From assembly GCA_000004695.1 (NCBI GenBank), contig CM000151.3, positions 5,216,001 to 5,280,000 on the forward strand: DNA of 64,000 bases, read 5' to 3'. Source of the stretch: Dictyostelium discoideum. Taxonomy: Eukaryota. The notes below the pieces were generated by a model that was not told the DNA's origin, ran no database searches, and saw only the letters and a program-made list of their open reading frames with translations. Below, piece after piece: positions 49,161-55,611 of the stretch; the first letter of the stretch is position 1; every line of letters begins with the position of its first letter. The position numbers and the translations under genes are program-made.

Positions 49161-49439
49161 TTTTTAATTTTTTTTTTTTTTTTTTTTTCTTACTTTTTTG
49201 ATATTATTTTTTAAAATATTATTATTATTATTAATTTTTTTTTTTATGAGATGAATAATTATAAATATATATAATATGTTTTTTTTTTTTTTTTTTTTTT
49301 TTGTTAATTAATTAATTAATTTTGAAATTAAATAGAATGGTATCAAAAAGAAATAAAATAATTGGTACTTTTTTAAAAAAAAAAATGGTGTGATGAGTTT
49401 TATTTTATTTTTTTTTTTTATTTTTTTTTTTTTGTTTTT

Positions 49440-49650
49440 TTTTCTTTGTGTATGTGTTTAAAACTGGTATGTGTGAGGTGTAAGTGGTGAGAAGGTAAAT
49501 TATTGTACAAATTTTTATAAATGTAGATAGATATTAATAAAAATATAAAGAGAATGAAATGAATGAGAAAACACAAAAATGTGATTTTGGGGGGTGTATG
49601 TTTTTTTCTTTTTCTTTTTCTTTTTCTTTTTCTTTTTTTTTTTTATATAT
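49440..49650. promoter_or_regulatory. Divergent promoter region between the RhoGAP gene (-) and gpbB/RACK1 (+) with GT-rich box cluster and (CTTTT)n/(TTTTC)n repeat.
   Basis: The region contains gtgtatgtgtttaaaactggtatgtgtgaggtgtaagtggtgagaagg at about 49448-49500 and ggggggtgtatg followed by ctttttctttttctttttctttttc at about 49585-49640. The two genes start in opposite directions at 49160 and 50629. Confidence 0.4.
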
Positions 49651-50628: not shown

Positions 50629-51764
50629 ATGGAACAACAAAAAGCACCACAAGTATGTCTCACTTTTTTTAAAATTTCTTTAAATAATTTTTTTATTTTT
50701 TTTTATTTTAAATATTCAATTTGAATAAAATAAAATGAAATAATAAAAATAAAAATAAAAATATTAATTATTATTAAATTTTTATAAAATAATTTTAGGT
50801 TACTTACTTAGAAGTCGGATCATTAGTTGGTCACAACGGTTTTGTCACCTCTATTGCCGTTTCACCAGAAAACCCAGATACCATCATTTCATCATCACGT
50901 GATAAGACTGTTATGGTATGGCAATTAACCCCAACTGATGCCACCTCACCAGGTAAAGCCCACAGATCACTCAAGGGTCACTCACACTTTGTTCAAGATG
51001 TTGTCATTTCCCACGACGGTCAATTCGCCTTATCAGGTTCATGGGATAATACCTTAAGATTATGGGATATCACCAAAGGTGTTTCAACCCGTCTCTTCAA
51101 AGGTCACACTCAAGATGTTATGTCTGTTGCCTTCTCATCAGACAACCGTCAAATCATTTCAGGTTCACGTGATGCCACCATCAAAGTTTGGAACACCCTC
51201 GGTGAATGTAAATTCACTTTAGAAGGTCCAGAAGCTCATCAAGATTGGGTTTCATGTATCAGATTCTCACCAAACACCCCAACCATCGTTTCAGGTTCAT
51301 GGGATAACAAAGTTAAGATCTGGGATATCAAGAGCTTCAAATGCAACCACACCTTAACTGACCATACCGGTTACGTCAACACTGTCACCATCTCTCCAGA
51401 CGGTTCATTATGTGCCTCTGGTGGTAAAGATACCTTTGCTTGTCTCTGGGAATTATCATCTGGTAAACCATTATACAAATTAGAAGCTCGTAACACCATC
51501 AATGCTCTTGCTTTCTCACCAAACAAATATTGGTTATCTGCTGCCACTGATGACAAAATCATCATTTGGGATCTCCTCACCAAACAAGTTCTCGCTGAAA
51601 TCGTCCCAGAAGTCAAAGAACAAGCTTTCGACTCAAAGAAAAAGAAAGAATCAAAACCAAAAGCACCAGCTTGTCTCTCCCTCGCTTGGTCTGCTGATGG
51701 TTCAGTCTTATATGCTGGTTACAATGATGGTTTAATCCGTGTTTACAAATCATCATCCCAATAA
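50629..51764 (+). CDS. gpbB: RACK1 (receptor for activated C kinase 1; G-beta-like WD40 protein). Exons 50629..50652 and 50799..51764.
   Basis: The 8-codon first exon (MEQQKAPQ) ends at a GTATGT donor. The acceptor aattttAG|GTTACTTAC gives ..[153 protein letters not shown]. This is about 60-70% identical to human RACK1 throughout. Confidence 0.9.
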
Positions 51765-52081
51765 ATTTTTTAATTAAAATTTCAAAAAAAAAAAATAATA
51801 ATGTGTGTTTTTATTTCTTTTTTTAATTTTTTTATTTATTTATTTATTTTTTTTCTTTAAATCTAATTAAACACAATTTTTAATATTTTTTTAATTTCCT
51901 ATGTTCAATTTTTTTTTTTTTTATTATTATTTTTTTAATAAATTGTTGTGATATCTGTTTGCTGGAATGGGAAAACTTTTTTTTTTATTTTATTATTTTT
52001 ATTTTATTTTTTTTTTTTTTTATTTTTTCCTTTTTGCAATCAAGAGAATTAATTTAAAAAAGATAATTTAAATAATAAAAA

Positions 52082-52260
52082 TGGTAGGACATTCAACATA
52101 TATCTTAGAATCAATCTATGTAGATCAAGTTAATAATATTCAAATACTGGTGGTTTAACAAAGAAGTATTTGAAAAAATGGACATTTTGAAAGAATTTCA
52201 AAATATAATGAAATCTCACTACGAATTAGTTGAACTAAAAAAGAATTGAGAAAAATGAAA
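52082..52260 (+). pseudogene. Degenerate upstream duplicate of the 52701..52886 small ORF (deletion producing a premature TAA).
   Basis: The sequence aaaATGGTAGGACATTCAACATATATCTTAGAATCAATCTATGTAGATCAAGTTAATAATATTCAAATACTGGTGGTTTAA.. aligns with the intact copy. It has about a 10-nt deletion (GCAAAATCCA) that gives a stop after 25 codons. The downstream ..ATGAAATCTCACTACGAATTAGTTGAAC.. is still alignable. Confidence 0.35.
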
Positions 52261-52582
52261 TTATAATTCTCTTTTTATTTTCTAAATTAAATAAAATTAA
52301 ATAAAAAAAAATAAAAATAAAAATAAACAAAATATTTGGATAAAATTAATAAATTAAATTTAAACTTTCCTTTTTTTATTATTTTTTTTTTTACTTTTTT
52401 ATTTTTTTTTAAAAATTTAAATCCAATTAAAATTCTAAAATATTTTTAAATATATTCTAATTTTTAATATTTTTTTAATTTTGTATAATTTATTTTTTTA
52501 AATCTTTATTTTTTTATTTTTTTATTTTTTCTTTTTATTTTCTGGAAACATTTTAGAAATATCTGTTGGTTGAAAGAAATTG

Positions 52583-52614
<32 letters not shown>

Positions 52615-52700
52615 CTATATAAAGGGAATTAATTAAATATTTTTAATTTTTGCTAATCAAAAAACAATATATTTAAAAATAGATAATTTAAATAATAAAA

Positions 52701-52886
52701 ATGGTAGAACAATCAACATCCACCTTAGAATCATACTATGAAGATCAAGTTAGTAATCTTCAAATGGCAAAATCCAGTGGTATACAAAAAGAAGTAATTG
52801 AAAAAATGTTTAATTTGAAAGAATTTCAAAGTATAATGAAATCTCACTACGAATTAGTTGAACAAAAAAAGAAATTAGAAAAATGA
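52701..52886 (+). CDS. Small 61-aa acidic/helical ORF of unknown function (intact copy of a locally duplicated unit).
   Basis: It has an ATG in AAAATGG context and ordinary codon usage. It is intact, whereas the upstream duplicate has decayed, and the 5' flank is conserved between the copies. No homology is recognisable. Support comes only from the duplication pattern. Confidence 0.35.
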   Translation: MVEQSTSTLESYYEDQVSNLQMAKSSGIQKEVIEKMFNLKEFQSIMKSHYELVEQKKKLEK

Positions 52887-53331
52887 AGAATTATAATTCT
52901 CTCTTTTTATTTTTCAAAACTTATAAACTAAATAAATAAACAAAAACATGTTTGGTTAAAATTAATTAAATTTAAATTTTCCTTTTTTTTTATTTTTTTT
53001 TGTTTTTCCATAAAATATTAATTTAATCTAACCCCACTGCTATTTTTATAATTTGCATATTTTTTTTTTTTTTACTCTAATTTTTTTTTAAAACATTTTT
53101 TTTTTTTTTTTTTTAAATTTTTTTTTTTAAAAATTTTATTTTAAAAATATTGATGATTGCGATCTGAATGGCTAAATCACACACTGGTGAATAACAAAAA
53201 ATTAAATTTAGAATTGGGTGGCAAAAATAATAAAAAAAAAAAATAAAAAAGGATTTCAATATTTGCAAAAGTTTGGGAAAAGCATCAATACCAATAATTC
53301 AAATTATTTCATCCTAAAAGTTTTTTAAAAT

Positions 53332-53362
<31 letters not shown>

Positions 53363-53411
53363 CCTTTTAATTCATTTTTTTTTAATTTTTTTTATTTTTC
53401 CACAATATAAC

Positions 53412-53447
<36 letters not shown>

Positions 53448-53580
53448 TTTTTAATTTTTTTTTTAATACATATAACAATTACCAACACAACAGATAAAAC
53501 AATAACCATTCGAATAATTATACATATAAAGTTTTTTTATTTTTTTTTTTATTTGTATAATATATTAATGGTTCACAAAA

Positions 53581-53583
53581 ATA

Positions 53584-53666
<83 letters not shown>
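53581..53666. repeat. (AAT)n microsatellite, ~28 units, intergenic.
   Basis: An uninterrupted aataat... run lies between the duplicated small-ORF locus and the PQ-loop gene. Similar (ATT)n tracts occur at about 20340-20390, 46310-46380 and 62840-62920. Confidence 0.9.
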
Positions 53667-54343
53667 GAATAATAAAGATAAAAAAGATTATTTAAAAAAA
53701 AAAAGAAACAATTAAATCAACATTATTTTATTATTATTCAAGTAAATTTATTGGTTTTTTTAATGTTGTAAATTCAAATACAAAAAAAAAAAAATAAAAA
53801 AAAAAAAAAAAATAAAAAAATAATAATTATAATAAAAATAATTTAATAAATAAATATAAAATCATAATAAAAAAAAAAACAGAAGCCTTTCATTATTTTC
53901 ACTTTTTTTTTTTTTTTTTACTTGAAATTTCAAGGGCTTGCTACAATTTTTTTGGGAGAGTCGTATCGAAAAGCTCAAATTCATTTTTCAATTTTTCAGC
54001 CTTATCGTTTTTATAAGCGGAATTGCAACCATTACCAACAACTGTAAAAATATTCAAAATTATAAAAAAATAAAAAAAAAAAAATCAACACTTTGTACAA
54101 AAAAAAAAAAAAAACAAAAAATTATCACATTGCATTAATCACAACAACCTTTGTAAATAGTATCACACCCACCCCACAATACACACACGCACATCACCAA
54201 TTTCACCATCAATTTCACCATTAATTTCACCATCAATTTCACCACTTTATTATTAAAATTAGTATATAAAATTTCAATCGATCAAAATTAAAATAGTCAA
54301 TTAAAAAAGAAAATAAAAATAAAAAACATATATATAATATCAA

Positions 54344-55611
54344 ATGTCTTCAAAATATTGTATAAATGGGACAATAGATCCATCAACAACAGAGGAATTT
54401 GAAGGAGTTATAGTAGATATGAATATTGGAGGAGTATTACTAGGTATTTTTTTATTAGTTGGCTGTTGTTTTTCGATTATACCACAACACATAAAAATTG
54501 TAAAAACTAAATCAGTAGTGGGATTAAGTTTCCTTTGGATGTTTTTAGGTAATATAAATCAATTTAGTGGTTTTATAAATATGTGTAAGTTTCAGTGGTA
54601 CCAAATTTAAATAATAATAATAATCATAATTATAAGAATTTTAAATTAATAATAATTCAATTTTTTTGTTTAGTTGTTTTAAAATTCCCGCAGGTTCAAG
54701 CATGTAGTACATTGGGATTTGCAAGATGTGGTCCTTCTTTATTATCATTATTTCAATCATTTGGTATATGGTTATTCTCATTTCCAATGTATGTATTAAT
54801 TAAATCATTTATTTTTAAAACTATTTAAAATGATAATATTAATATTTATTTATTTATTTTTAAAAAAAGTTATATATTATATTTAATTTTTGCACCAAAT
54901 GATTTAAAATTTATAGAAAAGACAAGTTTAAAAGATTTATCATCAGCAAGAAAAGAATATAGGTTAGCACAATTGTTTTTTTTAATGTTGGTGATGTTTT
55001 TATCATCGATAATACTGGTAGTTGGAATTTTAGTTAGTGATATTGTTGGAACATGTACACATACAACTTATATATTTGGTTATGGTATGGGAATGCTTTC
55101 AACGATTATAACGTTTGTACAATGGTCACCACAAATTTATAAAACCATTAGAGATAAAGCAGTTGGTTCATTTTCAATCATTATGCTTTGTATACAGGGT
55201 CCTGGTTCACTAATTAATTTATATTATTTAATTTTCGTTTCAAAAGAGAGCGTTTCAACTTGGTTAGCATATTTATGTTCATCAGTTCAAATTTTCATAC
55301 TTTTGGGATTATTAATATTTTTCGATCGTAGAAATAAGAGAATTGCAAGAGAACTAAAAGAATCATCAATTGAAGAACAAGATATTCATTCTGGTTCTCC
55401 AAATCAATCTGTTTTAAATTATAAAGAAACTCATCCATTGTTATTTACACAATCACCATCATTAAAATCACAACAACAAAATAATAATAATAATAATAAT
55501 AATAATTCCTCAAATCAAAATCAATCTAAAAATCATAGCATTTTAAATTCTTCTTTCAACTCTAGTTATCATGAAGAAAATGACAGAGAGGAATATTCTG
55601 ATCAAATTTAA
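54344..55611 (+). CDS. PQ-loop repeat (7-TM) transporter family protein (PQLC2/Ypq/cystinosin superfamily). Exons 54344..54584, 54674..54788 and 54870..55611.
   Basis: There are two PQ-loop signatures: IIPQHIKIVKTKSVVGLSFLWMFLGNINQF and WSPQIYKTIRDKAVGSFSIIMLCIQGPG. The first donor is ATGT|GTAAGT with acceptor ttgtttAG|TTGTTT (phase 1). The second is CCAAT|GTATGT with acceptor aaaaaAG|TTATAT (phase 2). Both were verified to read ..SFPI|YILYLIFAPND.. into the ORF at 54973..55611. Confidence 0.7.

Follow-up and report, generated by a model that had tools for sequence, protein, structure and literature searches.

Introduction

The textbook cases of genes born de novo, such as BSC4 and MDF1 in yeast and goddard in Drosophila, come with an orthologous non-genic precursor, documented expression and a documented phenotype. 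Here we compare with them a very small locus of the social amoeba Dictyostelium discoideum: the 61-codon gene DDB_G0275043 and the tandem copy that adjoins it, both contained in a window (the whole stretch of DNA analysed, 64,000 nucleotides (nt) long) from chromosome 2 of strain AX4. Like these genes, DDB_G0275043 is short, single-exon, helical and found in few sister species. It also evolves fast, with a ratio of nonsynonymous to synonymous change (dN/dS) well above that of its neighbours, maintains its open reading frame (ORF) and has no homolog elsewhere. Unlike them, it yielded no alignable precursor in the outgroup spacers. The adjoining copy, in turn, is like the polymorphic unprocessed pseudogenes in that it comes with its flanks, shows relaxed constraint and independent lesions, and has an intact allele in one strain. 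It differs from them in being very small (~620 base pairs (bp)) and in having a parent gene that is itself young.

The analysis began from an earlier reading of the bare DNA (the original prediction), which described a real but unannotatable small-protein gene with a decayed duplicate. The gene proved to be annotated already. Its 61-amino-acid (aa) product is the hypothetical protein DDB_G0275043 / EAL69802.1 / XP_643840.1 / UniProt Q86I55 of the AX4 reference (61/61 residues identical), and its record sits on the 8.48-Mb chromosome-2 contig, with RACK1 (DDB_G0275045) as neighbour. DDB_G0275043 is also among the 13,411 dictyBase genes of the REMI-seq lookup table, where it carries no pseudogene suffix. 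The gene itself being known, our observation is sound rather than new. The public record describes the same object and carries no function, domain or orthologs; to it we add comparative evidence of constraint, a lineage restriction and the adjoining pseudogene. Taken as a whole, the evidence makes it likely that the locus holds a real, constrained protein-coding micro-gene and a decaying tandem paralog.

Genomes and loci compared

Syntenic loci were collected through RACK1 orthologs for a ten-locus comparison. The loci belong to D. discoideum (L003, L004 and L008), D. cf. discoideum (L005 and L006), D. citrinum (L002 and L009), D. dimigraforme (L007) and D. firmibasis (L001), with AX4 as the tenth. 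Two more, from D. purpureum (L010) and P. violaceum (L011), were added to these later. L003, which does not differ from AX4 anywhere in the region, is presumably AX2. The newer assemblies are those of Holland et al., PNAS 2025 (PMC12745789). The order RhoGAP, RACK1, spacer, PQ-loop gene, CLN5 is kept in nine other assemblies, and gene order is conserved in all group-4 loci but that of D. purpureum.

An intact micro-gene beside a broken copy

The two tandem units lie in the AT-rich spacer 3' of RACK1. Their 5' neighbour is the last exon of that gene (gpbB, DDB_G0275045), a large ORF at 50913-51764, and the DDB_G0275043 ORF starts 937 nt 3' of its stop codon. The units repeat with a period of ~620 bp, of which ~440 bp can be aligned (~51940-52390 in the upstream unit and ~52544-53000 in the downstream one). 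A direct-repeat search pairs 52160-52259 with 52788-52887 (91% identity over 100 nt) and 52050-52145 with 52670-52765 (86% identity over 96 nt), at a spacing of 620-628 nt. Pairwise alignment of 51860-52500 with 52470-53120 gives a mean column identity of 84%, and the downstream unit matches the upstream unit at E = 4e-88 in blastn against the identical AX2-like locus. At the protein level, tblastn with the 61-mer has hits in the window at 52081-52146 and, in another frame, at 52160-52255 (E = 2e-11). Even with the AT-richness of the DNA allowed for, the similarity of the two units is far above chance.

The ORF list holds a 61-aa ORF at 52701-52886 in the downstream unit and a 25-aa ORF at 52081-52158 in the upstream one. 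The core of the original prediction thus stands: repeat search, alignment and blastn all place two units where it put them, one intact and one decayed, and the ORF list has both the complete 61-aa frame and the upstream frame that ends after 25 codons. Its unit size of ~400 bp needed revision to the figures given above.

The coding sequence of DDB_G0275043 (52701..52886, plus strand, 61 codons and TGA) is defined by the ORF list, by identity to XP_643840.1 / Q86I55 and by the comparative tests that follow. Searching the syntenic loci of other dictyostelids with the 61-mer, as had been suggested, recovers an intact ORF throughout the discoideum and citrinum clades. By tblastn and direct translation, the ORF runs for exactly 61 codons in all eight genomes of these clades, from the same ATG to the same TGA. 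These eight ORFs represent seven distinct sequences with 79-100% aa identity. In an alignment of four genomes the ORF has no gap columns (0/186) and 7.5% substituted columns, versus 13-68% gap columns and 18-39% substituted columns over most of the spacer. The exceptions in the spacer are the 3' flank of the ORF (9% gap and 11% substituted columns) and the segments beyond 53400, which are also less substituted.

A local neutral yardstick is provided by the synonymous sites of the neighbouring genes. In the comparison with D. citrinum, the micro-gene has a synonymous divergence (dS) of 0.18-0.20 and a nonsynonymous divergence (dN) of 0.11-0.12, and the neighbours have a dS of 0.23-0.28 and a dN of 0.02-0.04. 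That is, the dS of the micro-gene matches that of its neighbours and its dN is 3-5 times theirs. Expressed as proportions of changed sites, micro-gene pN (nonsynonymous) over neighbour pS (synonymous) is 0.46-0.54 (Fisher p = 0.0009-0.004). Keeping the frame open is also more than chance would readily give. Of all possible single substitutions 10.4% would break it, and when the 45 substitutions inferred by parsimony were placed at random, all seven ORFs stayed open in 1.7% of 20,000 simulations. Moreover, replacements are unevenly spread: residues 18-40 take 23 of the 32 (binomial p = 9e-5), and the first 17 and last 21 residues are almost frozen (MVEQSTS.LESYY.DQV and EFQ..MKSHYEL..QKK.LEK).

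The signal of selection therefore comes from the integrity of the ORF, the lack of insertions and deletions (indels) and the comparison with the local neutral rate, and not from a classic dN/dS test. It points to moderate purifying selection on the downstream gene. The retention 'like purifying selection' that had been claimed is borne out by an ORF intact in 8/8 genomes, without indels, and by nonsynonymous change at about half the neutral rate; the ortholog dN/dS of 0.4-0.9 does not bear it out.

The predicted product of DDB_G0275043 is hydrophilic, with a mass of 7.2 kDa and an isoelectric point of 5.8. The AlphaFold2 (AF2) model has helices at residues 4-23 and 29-60 with a KSSG joint between them; its mean predicted local distance difference test score is 79.7 and reaches 96 over the conserved C-terminal helix. 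Peptides predicted from the sequence include VEQSTSTLESYYEDQVSNLQMAK, EFQSIMK, SHYELVEQK and MFNLK.

Conserved flanks and candidate regulatory blocks

Two blocks 5' of the ORF are kept in the downstream copies across genomes, which agrees with the promoter-like flank of the original prediction. Block 1 of the functional copy (GGAAACATTTTAGAAATATCTGTTGG...GGAAAC; 52544..52586, plus strand) lies ~115-157 nt 5' of the ATG. Its form, GGAAACATTTTnGAAATATCT at AX4 52544-52586, is kept in every intact copy including those of D. citrinum; the block is present in all downstream and single copies and, in part, in the upstream copies. It is probably a cis-regulatory element. Then comes an oligo-T run (52587..52614, plus strand), which is found between the two conserved blocks in all copies and varies in length. 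The second block is TATA-like (CTATATAAAGGGAATTAATT, consensus TATTTAAAGAGAATTA; 52615..52634, plus strand), lies ~70-85 nt 5' of the ATG and would be a putative core promoter. It occurs in every intact copy of the gene, both D. citrinum genomes included, and is missing at the homologous position in all upstream copies examined (AX4, L004 and L008). The decayed copy in AX4 has its own version of block 1 (AAATTGTTGTGATATCTGTTTGCTGGAATGGGAAAAC; 51940..51976, plus strand), followed by a T-rich tract without the TATA-like block. The two units do share a 5' flank, as had been proposed, but the TATA-like part of it belongs to the downstream copy only.

On the 3' side, the flank of the intact gene (52887..53000, plus strand) is a probable 3' untranslated region, with overlapping AATAAA motifs at 52931-52940. 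Across four genomes 81% of its columns are identical, versus 41-66% for most other spacer segments. The corresponding flank of the decayed copy (52259..52390, plus strand) is homologous to 52887-53000 and looks like the one that follows the gene in L005 and D. citrinum, where it is single-copy.

Lineage restriction and origin

Profile searches with nhmmer and hmmsearch, covering ~10 kb either side of RACK1, found no copy of the micro-gene in the D. firmibasis and D. dimigraforme loci. They found none in the D. purpureum and P. violaceum loci either, the D. purpureum result being uninformative because synteny is broken there. In these two outgroups only 350 nt and 210 nt separate the RACK1 stop codon from a set of conserved non-coding blocks that anchors the position (AX4 53150-53600), and the interval has neither an ORF nor any significant resemblance to the micro-gene. 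In D. firmibasis the top local match is 19/22 nt (p = 0.17 versus dinucleotide shuffles) and the rest are matches of T-runs, the AT-rich spacers being too diverged to align. Judged by RACK1 dS, the distance from AX4 to the outgroups does not exceed that to D. citrinum (0.20 versus 0.23), so a copy at the syntenic site is unlikely to have been missed.

In both a local species tree built from 5,490 nt and the published 174-gene BUSCO tree (PMC12745789), the discoideum+citrinum clade excludes D. dimigraforme and D. firmibasis, which makes one gain more parsimonious than two losses. Beyond these loci, a word-indexed search of 5.8 billion proteins returned only the DDB_G0275043 protein itself, and an exhaustive phmmer search of 1.84 billion representative proteins returned the protein itself and one tandem-repeat artefact. 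The latter, P0011 (1936 aa, phmmer E = 3.6e-9), was rejected as a homolog: its score is summed over 11 repeats and its composition-corrected BLASTP E is 20. Homologs are confined to a narrow clade, and the gene is present syntenically in sister taxa and absent in outgroups, as is expected of orphan genes. By these comparisons DDB_G0275043 is best described as an ordinary young orphan gene of the discoideum+citrinum clade.

As a side observation, the break in D. purpureum (L010 9670-9831) falls 3' of RACK1, where a minus-strand gene with a TGT domain begins 161 nt past the RACK1 stop codon; the RhoGAP-RACK1 side is kept.

The main challenge to this account is that the gene could be older, having disappeared from or moved within the genomes of D. 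dimigraforme and D. firmibasis, rather than an innovation of the clade. The outgroup search spans only the ~10 kb either side of RACK1, the D. purpureum locus departs from synteny so close to RACK1 that it says little, and no non-genic precursor can be aligned in the outgroups. In addition, annotation pipelines skip small ORFs, so protein databases would miss a relocated copy. However, D. dimigraforme and D. firmibasis are successive outgroups, so that two losses would be needed in place of one gain; at the RACK1 divergences given above a syntenic copy should have been easily detectable, and no annotated homolog exists among the 1.84 billion representative proteins. We regard an older origin as unlikely, though it deserves more weight than any of the other alternatives considered below.

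Fate of the upstream copy

In AX4 the upstream copy (52081..52258, plus strand) is homologous to the whole 61-codon ORF and reads as a pseudogene, of which the first 25 codons (52081-52158) remain open. Near 52140-52146 it has lost 7 nt and at 52159/52160 a further 1 nt, and at 52247-52249 a TTA>TGA change makes a nonsense codon that precedes the ancestral stop (52256-52258) by three codons. By alignment the net loss is thus 8 nt (7 + 1), not the approximately 10 nt first estimated. The AX2-like copy in L003 has the same lesions as AX4. Elsewhere the damage is of another kind: L004 carries a 17-nt deletion, and L006 carries deletions of 4 nt and 3 nt plus nonsense codons. In the wild strain L008 the upstream copy has no lesion and retains a full 61-codon ORF.

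When all eleven copies are placed in one tree, the downstream and the upstream copies form separate clades, both with 100% bootstrap support. AX4, L004, L008 and L006 are represented in either clade, and neither includes the single copies of L005 and D. citrinum. This topology implies a single duplication, in the common ancestor of the four genomes that have both copies. Disabling lesions are found in three of four upstream lineages and in none of five downstream ones (p = 0.048), and no lesion is common to different lineages. A second strain could have shown both copies decaying equally, which would have spoken against a gene; instead, the downstream copy is intact everywhere and the upstream lesions differ, with one copy intact.

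Rates agree with this picture. In the four-genome alignment gap columns make up 17% of the upstream copy and substituted columns 23%, matching the surrounding spacer, and in L008 this copy has gained 27.5 replacements since the duplication versus 9 in the downstream copy (p = 0.0012). The dN/dS between the two copies had been put forward as a possible sign of purifying selection; it is 1.3-3.7, that is, above 1, because the upstream copy evolves fast. Along the upstream lineage dN/dS is 2.5, not significantly above 1 (p = 0.075). A frame would be expected to stay open after 30 random substitutions 11% of the time, and neutral decay with chance survival in L008 is sufficient to explain the data. 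With homology that includes the flanks, with lesions and with relaxed constraint, the upstream unit has the attributes of an unprocessed tandem pseudogene, and the strain comparison identifies it as a segregating (polymorphic) one.

Could the upstream copy instead be functional, or have been so until recently, diverging under positive selection with the L008 allele as its functional state? The intact ORF of L008, the lineage dN/dS of 2.5 and the values of 1.3-3.7 versus downstream copies would fit, and the independence of the lesions implies that the common ancestor of the four lineages still had an intact copy. Yet the excess over 1 is non-significant, chance alone would leave the frame open 11% of the time, the TATA-like block is absent from the upstream copies of AX4, L004 and L008, the copy is lost in three of four lineages, and its substitution and indel densities are those of spacer. 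We consider a functional upstream copy improbable, and hold to the segregating pseudogene.

Inside the AX4 pseudogene, a 23-codon ORF (MDILKEFQNIMKSHYELVELKKN; 52178-52249, plus strand) runs from a conserved internal Met and corresponds to the conserved C-terminal helix alone. It is probably fortuitous, because L004 lacks that Met owing to its 17-nt deletion.

Weighing the coding interpretation

Several observations weigh against a constrained protein-coding gene. By pairwise Nei-Gojobori counts, dN/dS among the orthologs is 0.4-0.9, reaches 1.27 in some pairs and is not significantly below 1. There is no excess of change at third positions (variable sites 14/12/12 by codon position), and a BLOSUM conservativeness test gives only a trend, with replacements marginally more conservative than random (P = 0.10). 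All of these counts rest on 183 nt and about five independent lineages. The Pfam family HTH_68 was rejected as a candidate (E = 0.13, 12.4 bits versus a cut-off of 27), and no Pfam match lies above threshold; a Foldseek search of PDB with the AF2 model retrieves nothing at E <= 10; and the hydrophobic moments of both predicted helices are not above those of shuffled controls, for which reason we make no coiled-coil claim. DDB_G0275043 is also unmentioned in the main text of the literature searched. For Kin 2018, the 2024 multi-omics study, Rosengarten 2015 and the 2026 life-cycle proteome, the supplement text searched contains neither DDB_G0275043 nor Q86I55, a result that is uninformative rather than negative, as the tables are cut short or use other keys and at least one of the four lacks even RACK1.

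These points feed the suspicion that the 61-codon ORF is a spurious gene-finder model of 2002/2005, open by chance in young non-functional DNA. The ortholog dN/dS, the lack of a third-position excess and the non-significant BLOSUM test are all what such a model would predict; it would also have no homologs and no Pfam domain, would go uncalled in nine modern annotations and would leave no expression evidence in the literature searched. On the other hand, chance keeps the frame open in seven distinct sequences after 45 substitutions in only 1.7% of simulations, and the ORF has zero indels versus many in its sister copy and most of the spacer. Nonsynonymous sites change about half as fast as neutral ones (p about 0.001-0.004), replacements are clustered (p = 9e-5), and the paralog serves as an internal control that decays as neutral DNA would. 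A spurious ORF is, on this balance, a poor fit to the data, and we give it little credence.

Least credible, and in our view very unlikely, is a non-coding function for the conserved island, as a small RNA gene or as a cis-regulatory module serving RACK1 or the PQ-loop gene, with an incidental ORF: substitutions are even over codon positions, the terminal segments are conserved at synonymous sites too (even in the decaying paralog) and a conserved non-coding region lies just downstream (53150-53600), but an Rfam scan of 51700-54400 gave no match at E <= 1, no tRNA was found, the predicted folding of the ORF RNA does not surpass that of shuffled sequence (z = +0.88), RNAalifold finds compensatory change in 0/29 pairs, an RNA or enhancer need not exclude stop codons and frame-shifting indels, and the island is absent in D. 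dimigraforme and D. firmibasis though RACK1, the PQ-loop gene and other non-coding blocks are kept there.

A proposed history of the locus

With a protein-coding micro-gene as the likely reading, the following history can be proposed. The gene would have arisen, or arrived at the RACK1-PQ-loop locus, on the discoideum+citrinum stem. It would be transcribed from its own TATA-like promoter and translated into a soluble, mildly acidic 7.2-kDa protein with two alpha-helices and a KSSG loop. In this protein the conserved termini may form an interaction surface, and the middle may be a tolerant linker, of a small helical binding module. We offer this role tentatively, with much less confidence than the gene itself, from the size and the conservation pattern only, the protein being too small for a catalytic site. 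A segment of ~620 bp would then have been duplicated once, in the ancestor of AX4, L004, L008 and L006, leaving a duplicate without the TATA-like block. That duplicate has gained about three times more replacements than its neighbour, was then disabled independently in three lineages, and is still open in L008.

A stronger version of this history is possible but doubtful. In it, DDB_G0275043 would be a true de novo gene, born from the intergenic DNA between RACK1 and the PQ-loop gene on the discoideum+citrinum stem, its terminal helical segments would already be under purifying selection, and its duplicate would have been caught mid-death with an intact allele still segregating.

Neighbouring features of the spacer

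Between the micro-gene and the PQ-loop gene, non-coding blocks at AX4 53150-53600 are conserved in all five species, including those that have no micro-gene. Their counterparts lie at L002 12026 onward, L001 11517-12040 and L007 11616-12090, and the block sequences include TGATGA..TGATC..CACAC..CTAAAATTAGAATT, GCAAAAGTTTGGGAAA, AAAAGTTTTTTAAAATAAT, AACACAACAGATAAAACAATAACCATT and TTTGTATAATATTAATGGTTCA. These blocks have no Rfam match, and RNAalifold yields only a weak 12-pair stem (-3.4 kcal/mol). They are probably the promoter region of the PQ-loop gene or an undescribed small RNA. Just past the conserved TTAATGGTTCA block lies an (AAT)n microsatellite, at 53584-53665 in AX4 and at L007 12095-12175 in D. 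dimigraforme, which appears to be a positionally conserved simple repeat.

Further along, 54100-54300 shows a strong skew of C over G (GC skew to -0.74) directly 5' of the start of the PQ-loop gene at 54344. A short periodic motif in this segment reads HHQFHHQFHH on the plus strand, and a minus-strand ORF lies at 54135-54245. Inspection of the G-skew at 49200-49600 revealed nothing notable.

Implications for annotation and young genes

None of the nine newer assemblies (L001-L009) has a gene called between RACK1 and the PQ-loop gene. The ORF is intact and uncalled in seven of them, among which is the AX2-like genome with an ORF identical to that of AX4. Micro-genes are a systematic annotation blind spot of modern pipelines, and the omission of this one by all nine recent long-read annotations is a concrete case of how they drop out.

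The importance of the finding is modest, given that DDB_G0275043 is already in the reference annotation and no new gene has been discovered. Apart from the annotation gap just described, its added value is of three kinds. First, a 61-codon 'hypothetical protein' gains comparative support as a real constrained gene and not an artefact of gene finding. Second, the appearance of the gene can be dated to the discoideum+citrinum stem and the duplication to the stem of the discoideum clade. Third, the adjoining pseudogene keeps its frame in one wild strain, and the lesions that break it differ among the others. CRISPR tools exist for Dictyostelium, and the locus is only ~1.2 kb long. If the gene turned out to have been born de novo, it would offer a convenient example of a young gene in Dictyostelium and, together with its dying duplicate, would give a model organism a compact, genetically tractable pair in which gene birth and gene death stand side by side.

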